This document shows positions 5,018-37,055 of a stretch of 64,000 nucleotides of DNA, piece after piece; the stretch's first letter is position 1; each line of letters begins with the position of its first letter. The notes beneath the pieces were generated by a model. The model had not been told where the DNA came from. It saw only the letters and a program-made list of their open reading frames with translations, and did no database searches. The stretch lies in NCBI RefSeq assembly GCF_017348835.2, contig NZ_CP071375.1. The stretch is one strand, 5' to 3'. Origin of the DNA: Escherichia coli (GTDB lineage Bacteria > Pseudomonadota > Gammaproteobacteria > Enterobacterales > Enterobacteriaceae). The position numbers and the translations under genes were made by a program.

Positions 5018-5200
5018 TCGCATCAGGCATTTATCGCCTGATGCGACGCTGGCGCGTCTTATCATGTCTGGGATTTGATGCCTTTATCACAACAGGGACG
5101 AGGCCCGTAGATCGGATAAGGCGTTCACGCCGCATCCGGCGGTTGCGCTCCGATGCCTGATGCGACGCTGGCGCGTCTTATCAGGCCTACAAAGGCATAC
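5018..5200. repeat. REP/BIME cluster (several palindromic units, gcctgatgcgacgctggcgcgtcttatcaggcctac type)
   Basis: Imperfect palindromes with REP consensus repeated in alternating orientation between convergent ygfZ and yqfA. Confidence 0.75.
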
Positions 5201-6354: not shown

Positions 6355-7815
<1,461 letters not shown>

Positions 7816-17794: not shown

Positions 17795-17978
17795 ATTTCT
17801 CTGAGATGTTCGCAAGCGGGCCAGTCCCCTGAGCCGATATTTCATACCACAAGAATGTGGCGCTCCGCGGTTGGTGAGCATGCTCGGTCCGTCCGAGAAG
17901 CCTTAAAACTGCGACGACACATTCACCTTGAACCAAGGGTTCAAGGGTTACAGCCTGCGGCGGCATCTCGGAGATTCC
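17795..17978 (+). ncRNA. ssrS: 6S RNA
   Basis: Sequence atttctctgagatgttcgcaagcgggccagtcccctgagccgatatttcatacc...ggagattccc matches remembered 6S RNA over its full length; sits between zapA and ygfA. Confidence 0.9.
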
Positions 17979-18601: not shown

Positions 18602-18649
18602 GGGCGACACACCTGCATCGCCCTGATTGACATCGTTGATTCTTTGACC

Positions 18650-18800
18650 TAATTTAGTGAGTAAGGGTAAGGGAGGATGACTCCTCCCCTGAGACTGACT
18701 GTTAATAAGCTGGGAAACTTATGAGTAACAGTACAATCAGTATGATGACAAATCGCATCATAACCCTTCTCCTTTAAGCCCTCGCTTCGGTGAGGGCTTT
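18650..18800 (+). ncRNA. sibC: SibC antitoxin sRNA (boundaries approximate)
   Basis: Antisense to ibsC, ends in hairpin gccctcgcttcggtgagggc at 18778-18797; position between ygfA and serA as remembered for sibC. Confidence 0.55.
18702..18761 (-). CDS. ibsC: type I toxin IbsC (19 aa hydrophobic peptide)
   Basis: Reverse strand atg atg cga ttt gtc atc ata ctg att gta ctg tta ctc ata agt ttc cca gct tat taa = MMRFVIILIVLLLISFPAY; below the ORF-track size cutoff. Confidence 0.8.
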   Translation of the reverse strand: MMRFVIILIVLLLISFPAY

Positions 18801-20477: not shown

Positions 20478-21137
20478 TCATTTCACAATGGTTTTGACAC
20501 CGTCAGGTGTGCCAATCAGCGCAACGTCCGCGCCACGGTTAGCAAACAAGCCAACAGTCACCACGCCAGGAATCGCATTTATGGCGTTTTCCATCGCTAT
20601 CGGGTCAAGGATTTCCATGCCGTGGACGTCGAGGATCACGTTGCCATTATCGGTCACCACGCCCTGACGGTATTCCGGACGACCGCCCAGTTTCACCAGC
20701 TGGCGCGCCACTGCACTACGTGCCATCGGGATAACTTCTACTGGCAGCGGGAATTTACCCAGAATATCAACCTGCTTGGAAGCGTCTGCAATACAGATAA
20801 ATTTTTCTGCAACCGAAGCAATGATTTTTTCACGGGTCAGCGCCGCGCCGCCGCCTTTGATCATTTGCATGTGGCCGTTGATTTCATCTGCGCCATCAAC
20901 GTAGATGCCAAGGCTGTCGACTTCGTTGAGATCAAAAACGTGAATGCCGAGGCTTTTCAGTTTTTCAGTGGAAGCATCTGAACTGGAAACGGCCCCTTCA
21001 ATCTGGCCTTTCATTGTACCGAGCGCGTCAATAAAGTGTGCGGCGGTGGAACCTGTACCTACACCAACAATGGTGCCGGGCTGAACATACTGAAGTGCCG
21101 CCCATCCTACTGCTTTTTTCAATTCATCCTGCGTCAT
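20478..21137 (-). CDS. rpiA: ribose-5-phosphate isomerase A
   Basis: 219 aa from ATG 21137 ([15 protein letters not shown]...); ORF track has a 24-codon extension. Confidence 0.95.
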
Positions 21138-21192
21138 GATCGTTTCGCCTGTGGTATGAAATTTCACACGCATTATATACAAAAAAAGCGAT

Positions 21193-22089
21193 TCAGACCC
21201 CGTTGGCAAGCCGCGTGGTTAACTCATCCATAAAATATCGCGCAATGGCAGGCATCCCCTTTCGCCCCGCAAATAAAGCATACAACGGTCTGGGTATGCC
21301 GCTCCACGGTGCAAACAGGCGCACCAGTTCACCGTTCACAAGCCCCTGTTTACAGGCAAATTGAGGCAATAACGCCACGCCATTCCCACCAAGTACTGCC
21401 TGCAGCATGACGCGAAGGTTATTTGACTGCAAACGCGCCTCAGGCTGCAGCGTAATCTCCTGTTCGCCATTAATTAATTGCCACTGGCTCCCGCCATTGT
21501 TCGCCAGCCGAAGGATCCCGTCGACGTGGTTAAGATCTTCAATAGCTTTCACCTGCGGATGGCGGGCCAGCCACTGAGAACTGGCAACTAAAATATCAGC
21601 CTGGGTATGTAATTTTTTATAATGCAGCGTCGAGTCCGCAAGCGCGCCGGAAGCCGTAACCAGCGCAATATCAATGCCTTCAGCGACCATATCCACCGGG
21701 CGATTAATTGCCAGCAGTTGCACCTTCGCCAGGGGCCAACGGGCGATAAACTCACTGACAAACTCACCAAACCATGTTTCAGCCATAAATACCGGCGCGC
21801 TGACGCGCAGCATTCCCTGTGGGCTTTCCTGGGCGGCCATCACCACCGCTCTAGCCCGTTCCTCCTGCGCCATCAGCGCCCGACATTCGACAGCAAACTG
21901 TTCGCCTGCCGCCGTCAGGGCCAGACGCCGCGTAGTTCGCTGAATAAGCCGTACGCCAAGGCGCTCCTCCAGTGCAGCCATTCGTCGGCTTAATACCGAT
22001 TTCGACACGCCCGCACGCAGCGCCGCCTGACTGTAGCTGCCTTCATCGGCAATCAGGGCAAAGTAGTAATAATCATTCCAGTCGATCAT
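21193..22089 (-). CDS. LysR-family transcriptional regulator, intact (K-12 carries only a fragment annotated yqfE at this site, as far as I recall)
   Basis: 298 aa; N-terminal HTH ([35 protein letters not shown]) plus substrate-binding domain; divergent from the next gene. Confidence 0.8.
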
Positions 22090-22120
22090 GATTGTTCTAT
22101 TTTCACAACAATGAAGTTCA

Positions 22121-22136
22121 ATTATGTCTATTTAAT
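22121..22136. promoter_or_regulatory. candidate LTTR box attatgtctatttaat (ATTA-N8-TAAT dyad) in divergent promoter
   Basis: Dyad with T-N11-A architecture within the 100-bp gap between the LysR gene and the azoreductase-like gene. Confidence 0.3.
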
Positions 22137-22189
22137 CATCATGTCAACAACAGTTAAACTTCTCTCATCGCAGAAACGAGAGCAAGCCC

Positions 22190-22819
22190 ATGAAAATTCT
22201 CCATATCGACAGTAGCCCAATGCTTAAGCATTCAAGTTCGCGGAAATTAAGCCAGGCGCTGGTAGAAGCGCTTTGCCAACACTTTCCTCAAGCCACAATT
22301 ATTCATCGCGACGTTGGCCTGACGCCGCCGCCCCATTTGCGTGAAGAAACCTTTCTGGCGCTTTGCGGTAAAGAAGAGTGCAAGAACGCACAAATTCAGC
22401 AGGAGGTGAATGATATCCACGCCGCTATTGATGAACTGGCATCGTGCGATGTGCTCATTATTGGCGCGCCGATGATTAATCACAGCGTTTCATCTGGCCT
22501 CAAAACCTGGATAGATCAGGTGTGTCAGGCTGGTTTAACGTTTCGTTTTAGCTCTGCAGGCGCCGTTGGGTTACTGAAGGATAAACCGACGTTTATTGTC
22601 TCGACGCGCGGCGGTATCTATTGCGATGAAGCACATCTGGCGCTGGATCATCAGGAAAGTTATCTGCAAGCCACGCTGAAATTAATGGGCATTACCAATA
22701 CACATATTTTACGTGCAGAAGGTGTCGACAAAACCCAACCGGGACGCGAACTCGCCGAGCAAAATGCATTAGCGCAAATCCCTGATCTTATTACACAAGT
22801 ATTTAATCATTACGTTTAA
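22190..22819 (+). CDS. FMN-dependent NADH azoreductase / flavodoxin-like quinone reductase family protein
   Basis: 209 aa; same architecture as AzoR (MKILHIDSSP...DVLIIGAPMINHSVSSGLKTWIDQV...TFRFSSAGAVGLL...STRGGIY). Confidence 0.7.
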   Translation: MKILHIDSSPMLKHSSSRKLSQALVEALCQHFPQATIIHRDVGLTPPPHLREETFLALCGKEECKNAQIQQEVNDIHAAIDELASCDVLIIGAPMINHSVSSGLKTWIDQVCQAGLTFRFSSAGAVGLLKDKPTFIVSTRGGIYCDEAHLALDHQESYLQATLKLMGITNTHILRAEGVDKTQPGRELAEQNALAQIPDLITQVFNHYV

Positions 22820-22835
22820 TATAAAAGGAGTTATT

Positions 22836-23096
22836 ATGTCTATTAAGCAAAATTTATTTACCGCGTTATTTCTTTGCACTCTCACAGGACATGCATTTGC
22901 AGCAACCGAGATACACAAACCGGACAATAATCTTGAACAGTTATCAAAAGTGAGCATGTCTACACACAATAGCAACCCAGCGGGCGTTGAAAGCCAAATC
23001 AAAGAGAAAGCGGAAGAGTTACAAGCCAGCAATTACTACATCAGTTCTTTCTCCGGTAAAAATTATATCCACGCTACTGTGATTTTCTATAAATAA
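22836..23096 (+). CDS. small secreted DUF1471 (BhsA/McbA/YdgH-like) protein
   Basis: 86 aa, signal peptide ending HAFA, C-terminal ...IHATVIFYK typical of the family; GGAG Shine-Dalgarno-like sequence 8 nt upstream. Confidence 0.6.
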   Translation: MSIKQNLFTALFLCTLTGHAFAATEIHKPDNNLEQLSKVSMSTHNSNPAGVESQIKEKAEELQASNYYISSFSGKNYIHATVIFYK

Positions 23097-23158
23097 TCAC
23101 TCTATTTAATGGGAGCATGGAACTGTTCTATGCTCCGCTGCCAAAATGAAATAAAAAA

Positions 23159-24484
23159 ATGAAAAAAGCTAATCTTACAGGTACGTTGGTTTGCTTTGTC
23201 GCATGTATTATTTTTTTGTCATCCGGCGATATTTTTCGTGAAAAGCCAATCGCGCTAATATGGTTCATTCGACAAAACACACTCTTTTTTACGGGAACCC
23301 TTGCGTGGTGTCTGATGACGCTGACGATGTGCTTATCGTTGCGTTCATCATGGCTTAACAAGATGCTGGGCGGTCTGGATAAAGCATGGCGATTACATAA
23401 GTGGGCAGGAATATGCGCCATCGTTTTTTCTTTCGCCCACTGGCTGGATGAAAAATTACCCCAGTTATTTGTCGCCTTTGGCTGGCTTACTCACCCTGGT
23501 AAAATTGTTGATATTAACCTGACGCCAGTACAAGAAAATTGGCTTCATGTGGGACTGTTAGCGGGTGAATGTGCAATGTTTATTATGATAGCGATGGTTT
23601 GCGTGTCTCTTAGCAAAAGAGTTCCCTATCATTTATTTCATCTTGTTCACCGTTTGTTCCCTGTCTTTTATCTGGCAATTGCCTTTCATGTGTTTACTGC
23701 TTTGTTTAAATCATATTGGTGGGAAACTCCTGCTGCGTATTTATTAATTTTAATTACTATTCCGGGCGTCTTTGTGGCTTTCATTTCGCTGCTGAAGTTA
23801 AACGGTAATAAAAGCAAGCATCAGGCCACCGTTAAAAGCATTGTTAACCATCCGGGACAAATTACCGAAGTCATACTGGAGATGGAACATCCCATCGACT
23901 ATTGTCCGGGGCAGTTTGCATTCTTAACTTTCGCACACAGTAAAGAATCTCACCCTTTTACTATCGCTTCATATGTAAAAGAGAAGAACACGTTGCGCTT
24001 TGCCATCAAAAATTTAGGGGATTATACCTCGACTCTGGCATCCTCGATACAAATCGGCCAGTCCGCCCTCGTTGAAGGGCCATGGGGAAAGTTTGATTTT
24101 ACTCTCCCTTGCTCCCGCCAGGTCTGGATAGCAGGAGGCATCGGCATTACCCCTTTTATCGCCCAGCTTGAGTATCTGAACCAGCATGGCGCGTCCCCTG
24201 TTTCTGTGGATCTCTGGTATTGCATCAGCCGAAGCGAGGATGCATGGTATGTTGATAAACTTACCTCACTTTGTGCCCAGGCCAGTGTCACACTGCATCT
24301 GCTTGATGCGCATAAAGGTGAGCGCCTACAGTCGCACTATCTTACTGATAAAATAGCAAATAAAGGTGACACCCATTTCTGGTTTTGCGGCCCACAGAGT
24401 TTTGCCAAAGCGCTCAGCAAAGGGTTATATGAAAATGGGATTGCCAGCCAAAACTTCCATTACGACCGCTTTTGTATGCGTTAA
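23159..24484 (+). CDS. NOX/ferric-reductase-type flavocytochrome (6-TM bis-heme domain fused to FAD/NAD(P)H-binding domain)
   Basis: 441 aa; His80/His94 and His164/His177 with 14/13 spacing in TM helices, HPFT FAD motif, [11 protein letters not shown](P)H motif, C-terminal FCGP. Confidence 0.7.
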
Positions 24485-24554
24485 ATGCTCTGTACCCAAC
24501 GCAAAATTGTGTCATAGTGCAGGAAAAAGCATTTACCAGGAGCAGACAACAGCA

Positions 24555-25448
24555 ATGAAACGCCCGGACTACAGAACATTACAGGCACTGGATGCGGTGA
24601 TACGTGAACGAGGATTTGAGCGCGCGGCACAAAAGCTGTGCATTACACAATCAGCCGTCTCACAGCGCATTAAGCAACTGGAAAATATGTTCGGGCAGCC
24701 GCTGTTAGTGCGTACCGTACCGCCGCGCCCAACGGAACAAGGTCAAAAACTGCTGGCACTGCTGCGCCAGGTGGAGTTGCTGGAAGAAGAGTGGCTGGGC
24801 GATGAACAAACCGGTTCGACTCCGCTGCTACTTTCACTGGCGGTCAATGCCGACAGTCTGGCGACGTGGTTGCTTCCGGCACTGGCTCCTGTGTTGGCTG
24901 ATTCGCCTATCCGCCTCAACTTGCAGGTAGAAGATGAAACCCGCACTCAGGAACGTCTGCGTCGCGGCGAAGTGGTCGGCGCGGTGAGTATTCAACATCA
25001 GGCGCTGCCGAGTTGTCTTGTCGATAAACTTGGTGCGCTCGACTATCTGTTCGTCAGCTCAAAACCGTTTGCCGAAAAATATTTCCCTAACGGCGTAACG
25101 CGTTCGGCATTACTGAAAGCACCAGTGGTCGCGTTTGACCATCTTGACGATATGCACCAGGCCTTTTTGCAGCAAAACTTCGATCTGCCTCCTGGCAGCG
25201 TACCCTGCCATATCGTTAATTCTTCAGAAGCATTCGTACAACTTGCTCGCCAGGGCACCACCTGCTGTATGATCCCGCACCTGCAAATCGAGAAAGAGCT
25301 GGCCAGCGGTGAACTGATTGACTTAACGCCTGGGCTATTTCAACGACGGATGCTCTACTGGCACCGCTTTGCTCCTGAAAGCCGCATGATGCGTAAAGTC
25401 ACTGATGCGTTACTCGATTATGGTCACAAAGTCCTTCGTCAGGATTAA
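24555..25448 (+). CDS. argP: LysR-type regulator ArgP (IciA)
   Basis: 297 aa from ATG 24555 ([28 protein letters not shown]...). Confidence 0.9.
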
Positions 25449-25651: not shown

Positions 25652-27796
25652 ATGTCTAACGTGCAGGAGTGGCAACAGCTTGCCAACAAGGAATTGAGCC
25701 GTCGGGAGAAAACTGTCGACTCGCTGGTTCAGCAAACCGCGGAAGGGATCGCCATCAAGCCGCTGTATACCGAAGCCGATCTCGATAATCTGGAGGTGAC
25801 AGGTACCCTTCCTGGTTTGCCGCCCTACGTTCGTGGCCCGCGTGCCACTATGTATACCGCCCAACCATGGACCATCCGTCAGTATGCTGGTTTTTCAACA
25901 GCAAAAGAGTCCAACGCTTTTTATCGTCGTAACCTGGCCGCCGGGCAAAAAGGTCTTTCCGTTGCGTTTGACCTTGCCACCCACCGAGGCTACGACTCCG
26001 ATAACCCGCGCGTGGCGGGCGACGTCGGCAAAGCGGGCGTCGCTATCGACACCGTGGAAGATATGAAAGTCCTGTTCGACCAGATCCCGCTGGATAAAAT
26101 GTCGGTTTCAATGACCATGAATGGCGCAGTGCTACCAGTACTGGAGTTTTATATCGTCGCCGCAGAAGAGCAAGGTGTTACACCTGATAAACTGACCGGC
26201 ACCATTCAAAACGATATCCTCAAAGAGTATCTTTGCCGCAACACCTATATTTACCCACCAAAACCGTCAATGCGCATTATCGCCGATATCATCGCCTGGT
26301 GTTCCGGCAACATGCCGCGATTTAATACCATCAGTATCAGCGGTTACCACATGGGTGAAGCGGGTGCCAACTGCGTGCAGCAGGTAGCATTTACGCTCGC
26401 TGATGGGATTGAGTACATCAAAGCAGCAATCTCTGCCGGACTGAAAATTGATGACTTCGCTCCTCGCCTGTCGTTCTTCTTCGGCATCGGCATGGATCTG
26501 TTTATGAACGTCGCCATGTTGCGTGCGGCACGTTATTTATGGAGCGAAGCGGTCAGTGGATTTGGCGCACAGGACCCGAAATCACTGGCGCTGCGTACCC
26601 ACTGCCAGACCTCAGGCTGGAGCCTGACTGAACAGGATCCGTATAACAACGTTATCCGCACCACCATTGAAGCACTGGCTGCGACGCTGGGCGGTACTCA
26701 GTCACTGCATACCAACGCCTTTGACGAAGCGCTTGGTTTGCCTACCGATTTCTCAGCACGCATTGCCCACAACACCCAGATCATCATCCAGGAAGAATCA
26801 GAACTCTGCCGCACCGTCGATCCACTGGCCGGATCCTATTACATTGAGTCGCTGACCGATCAAATCGTCAAACAAGCCAGAGCTATTATCCAACAGATCG
26901 ACGAAGCCGGTGGCATGGCGAAAGCGATCGAAGCAGGTCTGCCAAAACGAATGATCGAAGAGGCCTCAGCGCGCGAACAGTCGCTGATCGACCAGGGCAA
27001 GCGTGTCATCGTTGGTGTCAACAAGTACAAACTGGATCACGAAGACGAAACCGATGTACTTGAGATCGACAACGTGATGGTGCGTAACGAGCAAATTGCT
27101 TCGCTGGAACGCATTCGCGCCACCCGTGATGATGCCGCCGTAACCGCCGCGTTGAACGCCCTGACTCACGCCGCACAGCATAACGAAAACCTGCTGGCTG
27201 CCGCTGTTAATGCCGCTCGCGTTCGCGCCACCCTGGGTGAAATTTCCGATGCGCTGGAAGCCGCTTTCGACCGTTATCTGGTGCCAAGCCAGTGTGTTAC
27301 CGGCGTGATTGCGCAAAGCTATCATCAGTCTGAGAAATCGGCCTCCGAGTTCGATGCCATTGTTGCGCAAACGGAGCAGTTCCTTGCCGACAATGGTCGT
27401 CGCCCGCGCATTCTGATCGCCAAAATGGGCCAGGATGGGCACGATCGCGGCGCGAAAGTGATCGCCAGCGCCTATTCCGATCTCGGTTTCGACGTAGATT
27501 TAAGCCCGATGTTCTCTACACCTGAAGAGATCGCCCGCCTGGCAGTAGAAAATGACGTTCACGTAGTGGGCGCATCCTCACTGGCTGCCGGTCATAAAAC
27601 GCTGATCCCGGAACTGGTCGAAGCACTGAAAAAATGGGGACGCGAAGATATCTGCGTAGTCGCCGGTGGCGTCATTCCACCGCAGGATTACGCCTTCCTG
27701 CAAGAGCGCGGCGTGGCGGCGATTTATGGTCCAGGTACACCTATGCTCGACAGTGTGCGCGACGTACTGAATCTGATAAGCCAGCATCATGATTAA
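25652..27796 (+). CDS. scpA: methylmalonyl-CoA mutase (Sbm, sleeping beauty mutase)
   Basis: 714 aa from ATG 25652 ([14 protein letters not shown]...), B12-binding C-terminal domain. Confidence 0.95.
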
Positions 27797-28784
27797 TGAA
27801 GCCACGCTGGCAGAAAGTATTCGCCGCTTACGTCAGGGTGAGCGTGCCACACTCGCCCAGGCCATGACGCTGGTGGAAAGCCGTCACCCGCGTCATCAGG
27901 CGCTAAGTACGCAACTGCTTGATGCCATTATGCCGTACTGCGGTAACGCCCTGCGACTGGGCGTTACCGGCACACCCGGCGCGGGGAAAAGTACCTTTCT
28001 TGAAGCCTTTGGCATGTTGTTGATTCGTGATGGATTAAAGGTTGCGGTTATTGCGGTCGATCCCAGCAGTCCGGTCACTGGCGGTAGCATTCTCGGGGAT
28101 AAAACCCGCATGAATGACCTGGCGCGTGCCGAGACGGCGTTTATTCGCCCGGTACCATCCTCCGGTCATCTGGGCGGTGCCAGTCAGCGAGCGCGGGAAT
28201 TAATGCTGTTATGCGAAGCGGCGGGTTATGACGTAGTGATTGTCGAAACGGTTGGCGTCGGGCAGTCGGAAACGGAAGTCGCCCGTATGGTGGACTGTTT
28301 TATCTCGTTGCAAATTGCCGGTGGCGGCGATGATCTGCAGGGCATTAAAAAAGGGCTGATGGAAGTGGCTGATCTGATCGTTATCAACAAAGACGATGGC
28401 GATAACCATACCAATGTCGCCATTGCCCGGCATATGTACGAGAGTGCCCTGCATATTCTGCGACGTAAATACGACGAATGGCAGCCACGGGTTCTGACTT
28501 GTAGCGCACTGGAAAAACGTGGAATCGATGAGATCTGGCACGCCATCATCGACTTCAAAACCGCGCTAACTGCCAGTGGTCGTTTACAACAAGTGCGGCA
28601 ACAACAATCGGTGGAATGGCTGCGTAAGCAGACCGAAGAAGAAGTACTGAATCACCTGTTCGCGAATGAAGATTTCGATCGCTATTACCGCCAGACGCTT
28701 TTAGCGGTCAAAAACAATACGCTCTCACCGCGCACCGGCCTGCGGCAGCTCAGTGAATTTATCCAGACGCAATATTTTGATTAA
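27789..28784 (+). CDS. argK: methylmalonyl-CoA mutase-associated GTPase (MeaB/ArgK)
   Basis: 331 aa, P-loop GTPGAGKST; start overlaps scpA stop. Confidence 0.9.
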
Positions 28785-28794
28785 AGGAATTTTT

Positions 28795-29580
28795 ATGTCT
28801 TATCAGTATGTGAACGTTGCCACTATCAACAAAGTGGCGGTCATTGAGTTTAACTATGGCCGAAAACTTAATGCCTTAAGTAAAGTCTTTATTGATGATC
28901 TTATGCAGGCGTTAAGCGATCTCAACCGGTCGGAAATTCGCTGTATCATTTTGCGCGCGCCGAGTGGATCCAAAGTCTTCTCCGCAGGTCACGATATTCA
29001 CGAACTGCCGTCTGGCGGTCGCGATCCGCTCTCCTATGATGATCCATTGCGTCAAATCACCCGCATGATCCAAAAATTCCCGAAACCGATCATTTCGATG
29101 GTGGAAGGTAGTGTTTGGGGTGGCGCATTTGAAATGATCATGAGTTCCGATCTGATCATCGCCGCCAGTACCTCAACCTTCTCAATGACGCCTGTAAACC
29201 TCGGCGTCCCGTATAACCTGGTCGGCATTCACAACCTGACCCGCGACGCGGGCTTCCACATTGTCAAAGAGCTGATTTTTACCGCTTCGCCAATCACCGC
29301 CCAGCGCGCGCTGGCTGTCGGCATCCTCAACCATGTTGTGGAAGTGGAAGAACTGGAAGATTTCACCTTACAAATGGCGCACCACATCTCTGAGAAAGCG
29401 CCGTTAGCCATTGCCGTTATCAAAGAAGAGCTGCGTGTACTGGGCGAAGCACACACCATGAACTCCGATGAATTTGAACGTATTCAGGGGATGCGCCGCG
29501 CGGTTTATGACAGCGAAGATTACCAGGAAGGGATGAACGCTTTCCTCGAAAAACGTAAACCTAATTTCGTTGGTCATTAA
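28795..29580 (+). CDS. scpB: methylmalonyl-CoA decarboxylase (crotonase fold)
   Basis: 261 aa from ATG 28795 (MSYQYVNVATINKVAVIEFNYG...). Confidence 0.9.
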   Translation: MSYQYVNVATINKVAVIEFNYGRKLNALSKVFIDDLMQALSDLNRSEIRCIILRAPSGSKVFSAGHDIHELPSGGRDPLSYDDPLRQITRMIQKFPKPIISMVEGSVWGGAFEMIMSSDLIIAASTSTFSMTPVNLGVPYNLVGIHNLTRDAGFHIVKELIFTASPITAQRALAVGILNHVVEVEELEDFTLQMAHHISEKAPLAIAVIKEELRVLGEAHTMNSDEFERIQGMRRAVYDSEDYQEGMNAFLEKRKPNFVGH

Positions 29581-29603
29581 TCCCTGCGAACGAAGGAGTA
29601 AAA

Positions 29604-31082
29604 ATGGAAACTCAGTGGACAAGGATGACCGCCGATGAAGCGGCAGAAATTATCCAGCATAACGACATGGTGGCATTTAGCGGCTTTACCCCAGCGGGTT
29701 CGCCGAAAGCCCTACCCACCGCGATTGCCCGCAGAGCTAACGAACAGCATGAGGCCAAAAAGCCGTATCAAATTCGCCTGCTGACGGGGGCGTCAATCAG
29801 CGCCGCCGCTGACGATGTACTTTCTGACGCCGATGCTGTTTCCTGGCGTGCGCCATATCAAACATCGTCCGGTTTACGTAAAAAGATCAATCAGGGCGCG
29901 GTGAGTTTCGTTGACCTGCATTTGAGCGAAGTGGCGCAAATGGTCAATTACGGTTTCTTCGGCGACATTGATGTTGCCGTCATTGAAGCATCGGCACTGG
30001 CACCAGATGGTCGAGTCTGGTTAACCAGCGGGATCGGTAATGCGCCGACCTGGCTGCTGCGAGCGAAGAAAGTGATCATTGAACTCAATCACTATCACGA
30101 TCCGCGCGTTGCAGAACTGGCGGATATTGTGATTCCTGGCGCGCCACCGCGGCGCAATAGCGTGTCGATCTTCCATGCAATGGATCGCGTCGGTACCCGC
30201 TATGTGCAAATCGATCCGAAAAAGATTGTCGCCGTCGTGGAAACCAACTTGCCCGACGCCGGTAATATGCTGGATAAGCAAAATCCCATGTGCCAGCAGA
30301 TTGCCGATAACGTGGTCACGTTCTTATTGCAGGAAATGGCACATGGGCGTATTCCGCCGGAATTTCTGCCGCTGCAAAGTGGCGTGGGCAATATCAATAA
30401 TGCGGTAATGGCGCGTCTGGGGGAAAACCCGGAAATTCCTCCGTTTATGATGTATTCGGAAGTGCTACAGGAATCGGTGGTGCATTTACTGGAAACCGGC
30501 AAAATCAGCGGGGCCAGCACCTCCAGCCTGACAATCTCGGCCGATTCCCTGCGCAAGATTTACGACAATATGGATTACTTTGCCAGTCGCATTGTGTTGC
30601 GTCCGCAGGAGATTTCCAATAACCCGGAAATCATCCGTCGTCTGGGCGTCATCGCTCTGAACGTCGGCCTGGAGTTTGATATTTACGGGCATGCCAACTC
30701 AACGCACGTAGCCGGGGTCGATCTGATGAACGGCATCGGCGGCAGCGGTGATTTTGAACGCAACGCGTATCTGTCGATCTTTATGGCCCCGTCGATTGCT
30801 AAAGAAGGCAAGATCTCAACCGTCGTGCCAATGTGCAGCCATGTTGATCACAGCGAACACAGCGTCAAAGTGATCATCACCGAACAAGGGATCGCCGATC
30901 TGCGCGGTCTTTACCCGCTTCAACGCGCCCGCACTATCATTGATAATTGTGCACATCCTATGTATCGGGATTATCTGCATCGCTATCTGGAAAATGCGCC
31001 TGGCGGACATATTCACCACGATCTTAGCCACGTCTTCGACTTACACCGTAATTTAATTGCAACCGGCTCGATGCTGGGTTAA
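29604..31082 (+). CDS. scpC: propionyl-CoA:succinate CoA transferase
   Basis: 492 aa ORF. Confidence 0.9.
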   Translation: METQWTRMTADEAAEIIQHNDMVAFSGFTPAGSPKALPTAIARRANEQHEAKKPYQIRLLTGASISAAADDVLSDADAVSWRAPYQTSSGLRKKINQGAVSFVDLHLSEVAQMVNYGFFGDIDVAVIEASALAPDGRVWLTSGIGNAPTWLLRAKKVIIELNHYHDPRVAELADIVIPGAPPRRNSVSIFHAMDRVGTRYVQIDPKKIVAVVETNLPDAGNMLDKQNPMCQQIADNVVTFLLQEMAHGRIPPEFLPLQSGVGNINNAVMARLGENPEIPPFMMYSEVLQESVVHLLETGKISGASTSSLTISADSLRKIYDNMDYFASRIVLRPQEISNNPEIIRRLGVIALNVGLEFDIYGHANSTHVAGVDLMNGIGGSGDFERNAYLSIFMAPSIAKEGKISTVVPMCSHVDHSEHSVKVIITEQGIADLRGLYPLQRARTIIDNCAHPMYRDYLHRYLENAPGGHIHHDLSHVFDLHRNLIATGSMLG

Positions 31083-31975
31083 TGACTCGTCCCGTCACGA
31101 TCTTCAGCAATATGCTGAAGCATCGTGGCGGTATAACGATGATTTCTGATTGAATAAAGATATTCCTGCATATACATCGGCCTGTGCGGTGCATCAAAAT
31201 ATTTCAGCGTTGCCGGATTCACCAGTCGCCAGGCAAAATGCGGGATCACCGTCAGAAAATGTCCGCGCTCCACGGCGCTGATTTTGGCCATAAAACTGTA
31301 GGGACGATAAATAATGGTTGGATTGATCCCACAAGGTCGCATATTCGCATCAATCATTGCTTCGAAGTTGGCCCGGTTCTGAAAGCGCATTTGTAGCCAG
31401 GGCAGCTCCTGAAGCAGCTCTTGCTCTTGACGCTCTTCATAACGGCGAGAAACGAGAAAGCCTAATCGCAGCGGTGGTAGTTCACTGATAGTCAGGTTTT
31501 CCAGTTCCTGAACTCGTGCAGATACATGCTGTGGGGAGATAATAAAATCTAACTGACGGTCAAAAAGATTATCGATAACGCCGTTTTCGCTGAACTCAAC
31601 TGGCTGGGCGGTCACGCCTTCATACTTATCTCCGAGACTAATCAACTGATCGAAAATAATTGTCGGATAAGTATTATCTATGCCAATCACAATTTCTCGT
31701 GAACGACGCCCTGAGTTATGGATTTCATTATCAATCGCAGAAAGCCGTTGATAAACCGGGAACAGTTTTTGATACAGTTCCTGTCCGGCTTTATTGAGAC
31801 TGATATTATTATCTTTACGGGTAAATAGCGTATAGCCAATTTGTTCTTCCAGCGCGGCAATGCTTTTACCAAATGGCGAAGCCGTCATATGGATTTTTTC
31901 TGCCGCCCGGGCAATATTATTGGTTTGCGCTAATAAAATGAAATTGCGCATCTTTTTCGAATTAAAAATGTCCAT
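31079..31975 (-). CDS. ygfI: LysR-family transcriptional regulator YgfI
   Basis: 298 aa from ATG 31975 (MDIFNSKKMRNFILLAQTNNIARAAEKIHMTASPF...); convergent 4-nt overlap with scpC. Confidence 0.85.
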   Translation of the reverse strand: MDIFNSKKMRNFILLAQTNNIARAAEKIHMTASPFGKSIAALEEQIGYTLFTRKDNNISLNKAGQELYQKLFPVYQRLSAIDNEIHNSGRRSREIVIGIDNTYPTIIFDQLISLGDKYEGVTAQPVEFSENGVIDNLFDRQLDFIISPQHVSARVQELENLTISELPPLRLGFLVSRRYEERQEQELLQELPWLQMRFQNRANFEAMIDANMRPCGINPTIIYRPYSFMAKISAVERGHFLTVIPHFAWRLVNPATLKYFDAPHRPMYMQEYLYSIRNHRYTATMLQHIAEDRDGTSH

Positions 31976-32141
31976 CCCCCTCCCCCGCATCCTTGTCCGC
32001 TTAACCGTTTCAGTCAGCCTATCCTTGATGAAACCGCGAGCAAAGATAGGTGATTACGTCATGGTTTTACAGAAAATTACAGAAAAAGGAGGCAATATCG
32101 GGTAAAGGCATTAGCCCGACGAATACGTCGGGCTACAAGTA

Positions 32142-32882
32142 TTATTGTGCTGCAGGTGTTTTAGCGGGTTGTTGATCCACAGGTTCTAACTGGAAGACCA
32201 CATCGACCTGATCATCAAACTGAATAGCGGCCTGCTCGTAAGTTTCCTGGGCGGACACCGGCGCGGCATCGGCTTTCATCATCCGCACCATTGGGCTGGG
32301 CTGATAGTTGGAAACATGGTAGCGCACGCTATATACCGGCCCCAGTTTACGATGAAAGCCGTTCGCCAGTTCCTGCGCCTGATGAATCGCGTTATCAATC
32401 GCTGCCTTACGCGCTTTGTCTTTATAGGCATCTGGCTGCGCCACGCCCAGCGACACAGAACGAATTTCGTTAAGACCCGCCTTCAGCGCGCCATCCAGCA
32501 AGAAATTCAGTTTGTCTAACTGACGGAGCGTGACTTCCACCGTTCTCACAGCGCGGTAGCCTTTCAGGATACTTTTACCATCCTGATAATCATAATCTGG
32601 CTGGGTACGTAAGTTCGCTGAGCTGATATCTTTTTTCGCGATCTGATTGAGTTCAAGGAAGGAAATGTATTGTGCGACGCGCTCATCTGCCTGTTTCTTG
32701 GCAGTAGCGGCATCCTTCGCGGCCACGTTGACTTCAATCGCAAGAGTGGCAATGTCTGGCACCGCATCCACGCTTGCCGTACCGGAGGTGACAATATGCG
32801 GTCCATCCGGCAATTCGTTAGCCTGCGCTGCCATCCCGCTAATACCCATTAATGCCGCCAGGGCGATAACTTTGAACTTCAC
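32142..32882 (-). CDS. yggE: periplasmic DUF541 (SIMPL-like) protein YggE
   Basis: 246 aa, signal peptide. Confidence 0.85.
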   Translation of the reverse strand: MKFKVIALAALMGISGMAAQANELPDGPHIVTSGTASVDAVPDIATLAIEVNVAAKDAATAKKQADERVAQYISFLELNQIAKKDISSANLRTQPDYDYQDGKSILKGYRAVRTVEVTLRQLDKLNFLLDGALKAGLNEIRSVSLGVAQPDAYKDKARKAAIDNAIHQAQELANGFHRKLGPVYSVRYHVSNYQPSPMVRMMKADAAPVSAQETYEQAAIQFDDQVDVVFQLEPVDQQPAKTPAAQ

Positions 32883-36939: not shown

Positions 36940-37055
36940 TGTGCGCTTTGTCATGCCGGATGCGGCGTGAACGCCTTATCCGGCCTACAAAAACCTGCGA
37001 ATTCAATATATTGCAGGATACGTGTAGGCCTGATAAGCGTAGCGCATCAGGCAAT
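36940..37055. repeat. REP/BIME elements
   Basis: gccggatgcggcgtgaacgccttatccggcctac and gtaggcctgataagcgtagcgcatcaggc palindromic units. Confidence 0.65.

Follow-up and report, generated by a model that had tools for sequence, protein, structure and literature searches.

The physiological role of bacterial NOX-like flavocytochromes has been an open question since 2017. For SpNOX of Streptococcus pneumoniae (PDB 8QQ7, 8QT6), structures and kinetics are available, but no acceptor, regulator or phenotype is known. It reduces O2, cytochrome c and superoxide dismutase directly, its outer haem is exposed, and a protein acceptor may exist (PMC11564096). In a stretch of 64,000 nucleotides from Escherichia coli (NCBI RefSeq assembly GCF_017348835.2, contig NZ_CP071375.1; "the window" hereafter means this whole stretch), the gene for a NOX-like flavocytochrome lies in a four-gene cassette between rpiA and argP, together with the genes for a LysR-type regulator, an azoreductase-like flavoprotein and a secreted DUF1471 protein. 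Each of the four components belongs to a known family and is an ordinary member of it. The operon itself is uncharacterised, and full-text literature searches retrieved no paper describing it. The module is ancestral in Escherichia, has been deleted from most E. coli and is decaying in some of its carriers. On balance, we favour the reading that this ancestral, strain-variable Escherichia operon serves inducible redox-stress defence under its dedicated LysR regulator.

The cassette flavocytochrome and SpNOX are both single polypeptides with six transmembrane (TM) helices and no accessory domains. They share the two bis-histidine sites (H-x13-H in TM3, H-x12-H in TM5), the HPFT and GIGITP motifs and the C-terminal gating phenylalanine, and both are without the canonical O2-reduction centre. 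They are, however, about 22% identical overall, and the cassette protein belongs to a Gram-negative host, in which its outer haem faces the periplasm. Its gene is also part of a putatively LysR-controlled operon with genes for an azoreductase and a DUF1471 protein. The cassette supplies what SpNOX lacks, namely a dedicated regulator with a recognisable candidate operator and partner genes that are apparently co-regulated.

Three further systems of E. coli and other bacteria bear comparison with the locus. MsrPQ (YedYZ) with Fre of E. coli also has a di-haem membrane protein with a ferric-reductase domain that carries electrons from the cytoplasm to the periplasm, as the cassette protein would. 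A soluble flavin reductase can feed its membrane subunit, and the system repairs the envelope after oxidant stress. In the cassette, by contrast, membrane and dehydrogenase domains form one polypeptide, the periplasmic product is a cofactor-less DUF1471 protein, and there was no gene for an MsrP-like molybdopterin partner at the locus. The layout is like that of rclR-rclABC, which confers resistance to reactive chlorine and hypothiocyanite in E. coli: a dedicated regulator gene diverges from genes that encode, in order, an NAD(P)H flavoprotein reductase of the cytoplasm, a small DUF1471 protein of the periplasm and a protein of the inner membrane. However, the cassette regulator is LysR-type and not AraC-type as RclR is, the reductase has the flavodoxin-like fold of AzoR and not the pyridine-nucleotide disulfide reductase fold of RclA, and the membrane protein is a flavocytochrome with haem and flavin adenine dinucleotide (FAD) and not RclC, so that only the DUF1471 component is common to both. 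The likeness to rclRABC and MsrPQ is an analogy of architecture, not homology of system. The AzoR enzymes (E. coli AzoR, P. putida PpAzoR, P. aeruginosa AzoR1-3) share with the azoreductase-like protein a full-length, flavodoxin-like flavin mononucleotide (FMN) reductase fold of about 200 amino acids (aa). AzoR guards E. coli from electrophilic quinones, and quinone-sensing regulators control azoR paralogues in B. subtilis. The cassette enzyme is a separate paralogue, additional to the housekeeping azoR of E. coli, and its gene always adjoins an orthologous LysR regulator gene.

An initial annotation made from the sequence alone had described four open reading frames (ORFs) between rpiA and argP and assigned them to the LysR, azoreductase, DUF1471 and NOX-type families. 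The ORFs are all intact and lie exactly where it had placed them, and the assignments were borne out by profile, solved-structure and fold searches. The features of the locus, in window coordinates, are:

21193-22089, minus strand: gene for the LysR-type regulator (298 aa), an intact ORF divergent from the operon
22090-22189, no strand: divergent control region of 100 bp, the sequence between the LysR and azoreductase-like genes
22091-22112, no strand: candidate LysR operator, the dyad ATTGTT-N10-AACAAT, an inverted repeat adjoining the LysR start codon
22190-22819, plus strand: gene for a cytoplasmic AzoR-family paralogue, an FMN-dependent NAD(P)H:quinone/azo oxidoreductase (209 aa), from the ORF and Pfam Flavodoxin_2
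22836-23096, plus strand: gene for the secreted DUF1471 (YhcN/BhsA/RclB family) protein (86 aa), from the ORF and PF07338
22836-22901, plus strand: signal peptide of the DUF1471 protein (residues 1-22), with cleavage after AFA
23159-24484, plus strand: whole gene for the NOX-like flavocytochrome (441 aa), an intact ORF
23159-23803, plus strand: transmembrane ferric-reductase domain of the NOX-like protein (residues 1-215), from Pfam Ferric_reduct and six helices
23804-24484, plus strand: cytoplasmic dehydrogenase domain of the NOX-like protein (residues 216-441) with predicted FAD and NAD(P)H binding, from Pfam and motifs
21386-22731, no strand: first segment absent from K-12 and from most E. 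coli; it takes in the control region together with the 5' two-thirds of the LysR gene and most of the azoreductase-like gene
22794-24498, no strand: second segment missing in K-12, comprising the 3' tip of the azoreductase-like gene, the DUF1471 gene and the NOX-like gene

The cassette is flanked upstream by rpiA (ORF end at 20478) and downstream by argP (start at about 24555). The divergent gap of 100 bp is followed by gaps of 16 bp and 62 bp, and a consensus scan for terminators between the three co-directional genes gave nothing above chance, in agreement with the tight three-gene unit of the initial annotation. Promoter and terminator consensus scans of the locus as a whole gave chance-level matches. 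The region had also been called AT-richer than rpiA and argP (GC content 52-53.5%). This is true of the three operon genes (azoreductase-like 47.6%, DUF1471 38.3%, NOX-like 44.3%) but not of the LysR gene, which at 55.7% is richer in GC than both flanking genes. The stretch was 100% identical in PE164, an E. coli pig isolate, for which the RefSeq annotation lists the same four genes by homology. PADLOC gave no match for any of the four proteins, and an anti-phage defence role was rejected.

The regulator has the domains of a LysR-type protein, with Pfam matches to HTH_1 (residues 4-63, 1.2e-19) and LysR_substrate (residues 88-294, 1.2e-32), and is encoded divergently from its presumed target operon. 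No NCBIfam equivalog cut-off was reached (best PRK14997, 169 bits versus a cut-off of 380). The protein was 71% identical to the regulator of a Salmonella cassette and 38-55% identical to regulators that elsewhere accompany azoreductase-like genes, NOX-like genes or both, which places these putative orthologues far above the level of generic LysR paralogues. The 60 bp of the control region nearest the LysR gene were 83% identical between E. coli and Salmonella, in contrast to 57-67% for the flanking coding DNA, indicating constraint on the cis-regulatory sequence. In four versions of the cassette (E. coli, the Logan assembly L098, Salmonella contig L003 and L095), the dyad arms ATTGTT/AACAAT were invariant and the N10 spacer was variable. 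Invariant arms with a variable spacer are the expected signature of a regulator-binding site, suggesting that the dyad is bound by the LysR protein.

The azoreductase-like protein matched Pfam Flavodoxin_2 (PF02525) over its full length (residues 1-192, 3.8e-41). Its closest solved relatives were AzoR of P. putida (4c0w, 1e-30, full length) and AzoR of E. coli (1v4b, 7e-21), which together with the full-length domain places it in the AzoR family. Since its best NCBIfam score was under the cut-off (NF010075, 73 bits versus 188), the protein is a divergent AzoR-family paralogue and not an AzoR equivalog.

The cassette is also present, with its gene order unchanged, in some strains of Salmonella enterica, where the regulator and the azoreductase-like protein are each 71% identical to their E. 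coli counterparts, the NOX-like protein 50% and the DUF1471 protein 38%. The Salmonella cassette sits in a tRNA-Phe island. On one contig (L003 2271-6320), it directly follows the tRNA-Phe gene and lies beside yqgA (DUF554) and an ornithine decarboxylase gene, and on a second contig (L004 141-4003) it adjoins an integrase arm-binding fragment. This context, which differs from that in E. coli, implies that the cassette has moved horizontally at least once. Cassette and operator are conserved across genomes whose synonymous divergence is saturated. Outside Escherichia and Salmonella, orthologous LysR genes were found with both the azoreductase-like and the NOX-like gene but without a DUF1471 gene (L095, L008), with the NOX-like gene alone (L007 and L010, the latter an Azonexus metagenome-assembled genome, MAG), and with the azoreductase-like gene alone (Hafnia-like L096 and Rahnella L097). 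These separate pairings suggest that the two enzymes answer to the same type of regulator, one without need of the other. An obligate azoreductase/NOX complex was rejected, as each gene occurs alone beside an orthologous regulator. In Rahnella sikkimica (L097 2421-3470), an ApbE flavin-transferase gene adjoined the LysR/azoreductase-like pair, which may be coincidental. ApbE-dependent flavinylation accompanies MsrQ-like electron-export systems elsewhere (PMC8238504).

The wider NOX-like family was sampled at 80 loci (L010-L089) from other species, among the matches listed, with NOX-like proteins 34-43% identical to that of the cassette. No azoreductase, DUF1471 or LysR partner was found at these 80 loci, and a general association of the family with any of the three was therefore rejected. 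In this wider family (mostly Beta- and Gammaproteobacteria), the NOX-like gene was usually the last of its operon. Upstream of it lay genes for a DUF1924 c-type cytochrome (Pfam 8.5e-36), for a PepSY-like protein and for a further protein that carries two CxxCH motifs, and alongside were genes for a divergent OmpR-type response regulator and a sensor kinase. This arrangement is exemplified by a Rhodoferax MAG (L053 800-6220) and was seen at 29-36 of the 80 loci. The presence of c-type cytochrome genes in NOX-like operons suggests that periplasmic cytochromes act as electron acceptors in those organisms.

The N-terminus of the DUF1471 protein can be read as a signal peptide, MSIKQNLFTALFLCTLTGHAFA, cleaved before AT; its hydrophobic stretch ends in AFA, with an A as the next residue. 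Behind it, Pfam PF07338 (YdgH_BhsA-like/DUF1471) matched residues 34-86 (2.5e-9), and PF07338 behind a Sec signal peptide places the protein in the DUF1471/YhcN-BhsA-McbA family. The NCBIfam models for BhsA (6.6e-14; 52 bits versus a cut-off of 90), YhcN (1e-9; 38.5 versus 125) and RclB (2.7e-6; 27.5 versus 100) all matched below their cut-offs, and by NCBIfam the protein was not equivalent to BhsA, YhcN, RclB, McbA or YbiJ. For RclB and RclC, a lowering of envelope permeability has been proposed (PMC12096828). The mature protein contains no cysteine and, when compared with the Salmonella sequence, no conserved S/T-G-A-S/T-type motif, which led us to reject it as a redox or flavinylation target. 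The DUF1471 gene is a late addition to the cassette, specific to Escherichia and Salmonella.

In the NOX-like protein, Pfam identified Ferric_reduct (3.9e-14), FAD_binding_8 (8.7e-8) and NAD_binding_1 (1e-6), and also FAD_binding_6. The initial annotation had named flavodoxin_2, DUF1471, Ferric_reduct, FAD_binding_8 and NAD_binding_6 as the families by which its assignments could be checked; the first four were recovered, but NAD_binding_6 was not significant (E 0.86) and NAD_binding_1 matched instead. By their motifs, H80 and H164 would ligate the inner haem and H94 and H177 the outer haem (H80-x13-H94, H164-x12-H177). All four histidines were invariant across 20 homologues down to 36% identity, and H80 and H94 align with H69 and H83 of SpNOX. 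Across the same 20 homologues, H265 of the FAD motif (HPFTI at residue 265) was nearly invariant and P266 invariant, as were G326, G327, I328, P332 and F333 in and around the NAD(P)H motif (GIGITP at 327) and the C-terminal aromatic residue F438; the CGP motif at 410 was likewise invariant or nearly so. The best solved relative by sequence was SpNOX (6e-28; 3.8e-23 for the SpNOX dehydrogenase domain). An AlphaFold2 model (predicted local distance difference test score 84.6) showed six long helices in residues 2-211 and a TM domain of the ferric-reductase type packed against an FNR-like dehydrogenase domain, which is the fold of NOX enzymes. A Foldseek search of the PDB with this model returned SpNOX first (8qt6 and 8qq7, E 7e-25, TM-score 0.69-0.78), with human NOX5, NOX2 and DUOX1 next; with normalisation to the dehydrogenase domain of SpNOX, the TM-score was 0.85. 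The loop charges fit a cytoplasmic N-terminus and dehydrogenase domain, with the H94/H177 haem at the periplasmic face.

The filters proposed for bacterial NOX-like proteins by Hajjar et al. in 2017 are an FAD motif H[PSA]F[TS][LIMV], an NAD(P)H motif, two His-X12/14-His pairs at least 20 residues apart in TM helices, and 3-7 predicted helices (PMC5676040). The cassette protein passed all of the sequence filters (HPFTI, GIGITP, H-x13-H, H-x12-H). The O2-reduction centre of eukaryotic and cyanobacterial NOX, represented in NOX2 by H119 and R54, is absent. H94 is followed by W-L-D-E-K, so that position +4 is E98 and not a histidine, and no arginine is present at the outer end of TM2 (TLFFTGT), as judged by sequence position and not by structural superposition.

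An E. coli protein named "EcNOX" (UniProt L2VL28, strain KTE10) was cloned in 2017, gave a haem spectrum weaker than that of SpNOX and was dropped (PMC5676040). EcNOX is very probably an allele of the cassette protein, since the other E. coli NOX-like paralogue that was found has HPYT and fails the published FAD filter. The statement in the initial annotation that the module is uncharacterised in E. coli thus stands as regards function, none being documented in the searchable literature, but the NOX-like gene itself had very probably been cloned before. The second paralogue was 38% identical, with HPYT in place of HPFT, lay in an unrelated gene context (L006 5001-6308, beside IS66 genes), and was only plasmid-borne, in three of 5,426 genomes (NZ_CP148350.1, NZ_CP047380.1 and NZ_CP148340.1).

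The initial annotation had suggested an electron-transfer or reactive-oxygen module. Its redox families were confirmed, while the reactive-oxygen part is one possibility, in which the flavocytochrome would be a dedicated superoxide generator (a true NADPH oxidase) that deliberately makes superoxide from O2 in the periplasm, to serve signalling, competition or iron chemistry, with the azoreductase-like and DUF1471 proteins protecting the producer. Such a function would be consistent with the position of SpNOX as the closest solved relative by both sequence and fold, with the passage of all four motif filters of Hajjar et al., and with the use of O2 by SpNOX with NAD(P)H in vitro (PMC11564096). 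It is nevertheless unlikely, given that the canonical O2 centre is absent (E98, no TM2 arginine) as it is in SpNOX, whose authors consider that O2 is perhaps not the physiological acceptor (PMC11564096). Related family members are encoded in operons with periplasmic c-type cytochromes, and regulation shared with a detoxifying two-electron quinone reductase suits defence better than generating reactive oxygen species.

The history of the locus was resolved by alignment with K-12, in which, according to the initial annotation, only a LysR fragment (yqfE) is left. Indeed, strain W3110 has only a 231-bp coding sequence for the LysR C-terminus between rpiA and argP. K-12 matches the window through 21385, which corresponds to the last 255 bp of the LysR gene (pseudogene yqfE), then retains about 55-61 bp of the 3' end of the azoreductase-like gene (22732-22793, 90-93% identical), and rejoins the window at 24499, upstream of argP. 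These breakpoints define the indel as the two missing segments given above. Because two internal remnants of the module have been kept, the K-12 state is a deletion product, and deletion of the ancestral operon explains the origin of pseudogene yqfE. Between the azoreductase remnant and the argP promoter, the K-12 scar contains a filler of about 62-65 bp (L002 1546-1607) with no match in any allele tested or in the Salmonella cassette.

Of 5,426 complete E. coli genomes, about 232 had 80% or more of the island, and about 96% lacked it. Some part of it was matched by 3,895 of the genomes, about 3,660 of them by a 61-bp remnant only; the remaining genomes had lost the remnant too. The remnant common to these roughly 3,660 genomes was assumed, rather than mapped, to stem from a single deletion event. 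Carriers include SMS-3-5, PCN033 and O157:H16 Santai. The exact allele was found only in PE164 and F2_81, and other alleles were 95-98.5% identical. All four ORFs were intact also in SMS-3-5 and Santai. Among the 60 genomes that matched best, at least 12 had a frameshift that splits the NOX-like gene, and other genomes had IS1 in it. The Escherichia-like Logan assembly L098 (85% DNA identity over serA-argP) has the same four genes between rpiA and argP with 88-95% protein identity, and since it holds the module at the same site, the module predates the diversification of E. coli. A recent horizontal insertion in the present strain was rejected on the basis of the internal remnants in K-12 and of this 15%-diverged genome with the module at the same site. 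The locus is a clear case of an ancestral Escherichia operon that has been deleted from most E. coli and is still decaying in the remainder. L098 also lacks the argP-yggE block, which starts with scpA (methylmalonyl-CoA mutase) in the window; its alignment (7513-7605) jumps from window position 25652 to 32180.

The rarity of the module raises the possibility that it is an evolutionary relic without a current role in E. coli, merely not yet deleted in a few lineages. Its absence from about 96% of complete genomes and the frameshifts and IS1 insertions in the NOX-like gene point in this direction, as does the ratio of nonsynonymous to synonymous substitution rates (dN/dS) of that gene, which was 0.40 versus the SMS-3-5 allele. 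Against the same allele, dN/dS was 0.10 for the LysR gene, 0.12 for the azoreductase-like gene and 0.05 for the DUF1471 gene, and this range of 0.05-0.12 suggests purifying selection on the three; the value for the NOX-like gene is also below 1. With the four ORFs intact here, in SMS-3-5 and in Santai, and with cassette and operator kept across genera despite saturated synonymous divergence, a relic seems rather improbable.

For a redox-stress defence operon, we propose the following mechanism. The LysR regulator would bind the dyad ATTGTT-N10-AACAAT beside its own start codon and, upon binding a co-inducer, activate the divergent three-gene operon. In the cytoplasm, the azoreductase-like enzyme would use NAD(P)H for the two-electron reduction of quinones or related electrophiles. 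The Sec-exported DUF1471 protein may act in the envelope, like its stress-induced paralogues BhsA, YhcN and RclB. In the flavocytochrome, FAD would accept hydride from NAD(P)H on the cytoplasmic side, and single electrons would then cross the inner membrane through the H80/H164 haem and next the H94/H177 haem, to reach an acceptor on the periplasmic side. From the biology of AzoR and the shared regulator, we tentatively suggest quinones, other redox-active electrophiles or host or plant oxidants as the class of inducer and substrate, to be reduced both in the cytoplasm and at the periplasmic face, with the reduction of O2 to superoxide as a side reaction; this assignment is less probable than the defence role as such.

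Several observations weigh against this reading. The frameshifts that split the NOX-like gene in some carriers imply that the contribution of the NOX-like protein may be dispensable. The NOX-like gene also evolves faster than its neighbours (50% versus 71% identity to Salmonella, with the dN/dS noted above), and over-expressed EcNOX gave a weak haem signal (PMC5676040). The regulator, azoreductase-like protein and DUF1471 protein all scored below NCBIfam equivalog cut-offs, so that the functions of named orthologues are not transferable. The neighbours of the NOX-like gene differ markedly across most of the wider family, which limits arguments from gene context to the enterobacterial subclade, and the co-inducer class proposed above is conjectural.

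An assimilatory ferric or cupric reductase supplying reduced metal for uptake, as the Pfam Ferric_reduct match, the database names "iron reductase" and "ferric reductase-like", the same architecture in yeast FRE enzymes and the iron transporters linked to some MsrQ-like clusters (PMC8238504) might suggest, is improbable in view of the presumed control by a LysR-type regulator, the lack of a convincing Fur box in the control region (a scan with the 19-bp consensus gave at best 12/19, a level reached about 100 times in the window and thus not distinctive, on which ground Fur control and iron uptake were rejected as the leading explanation), the absence of metal transporter genes from the cassette and its immediate surroundings in E. 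coli, Salmonella and L095, and the very poor ferric reductase activity of SpNOX (kcat 0.05 per second; PMC11564096).

A more specific version of redox-stress defence would be trans-envelope electron export in which the DUF1471 protein is a specific partner that docks on or gates the exposed outer haem, and in which a periplasmic host or plant oxidant or a quinone is detoxified. We regard it as a long shot. If true, it would give bacterial NOX-like proteins their first physiological function and DUF1471 proteins their first molecular role. Natural nulls (K-12 and most E. coli) and natural carriers exist in tractable E. coli and Salmonella, and identification of the LysR inducer would probably reveal the substrate class.

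An Rfam scan of positions 21000-24700 gave nothing credible, and hidden RNA elements in the cassette were rejected. Elsewhere in the window, Rfam matches above the gathering threshold were 6S RNA (17795-17978), SIB (Sib antitoxin) RNA just upstream of serA (18627-18777), naRNA4 (5110-5187) and ES036 (36989-37031), all of them expected K-12-like features.

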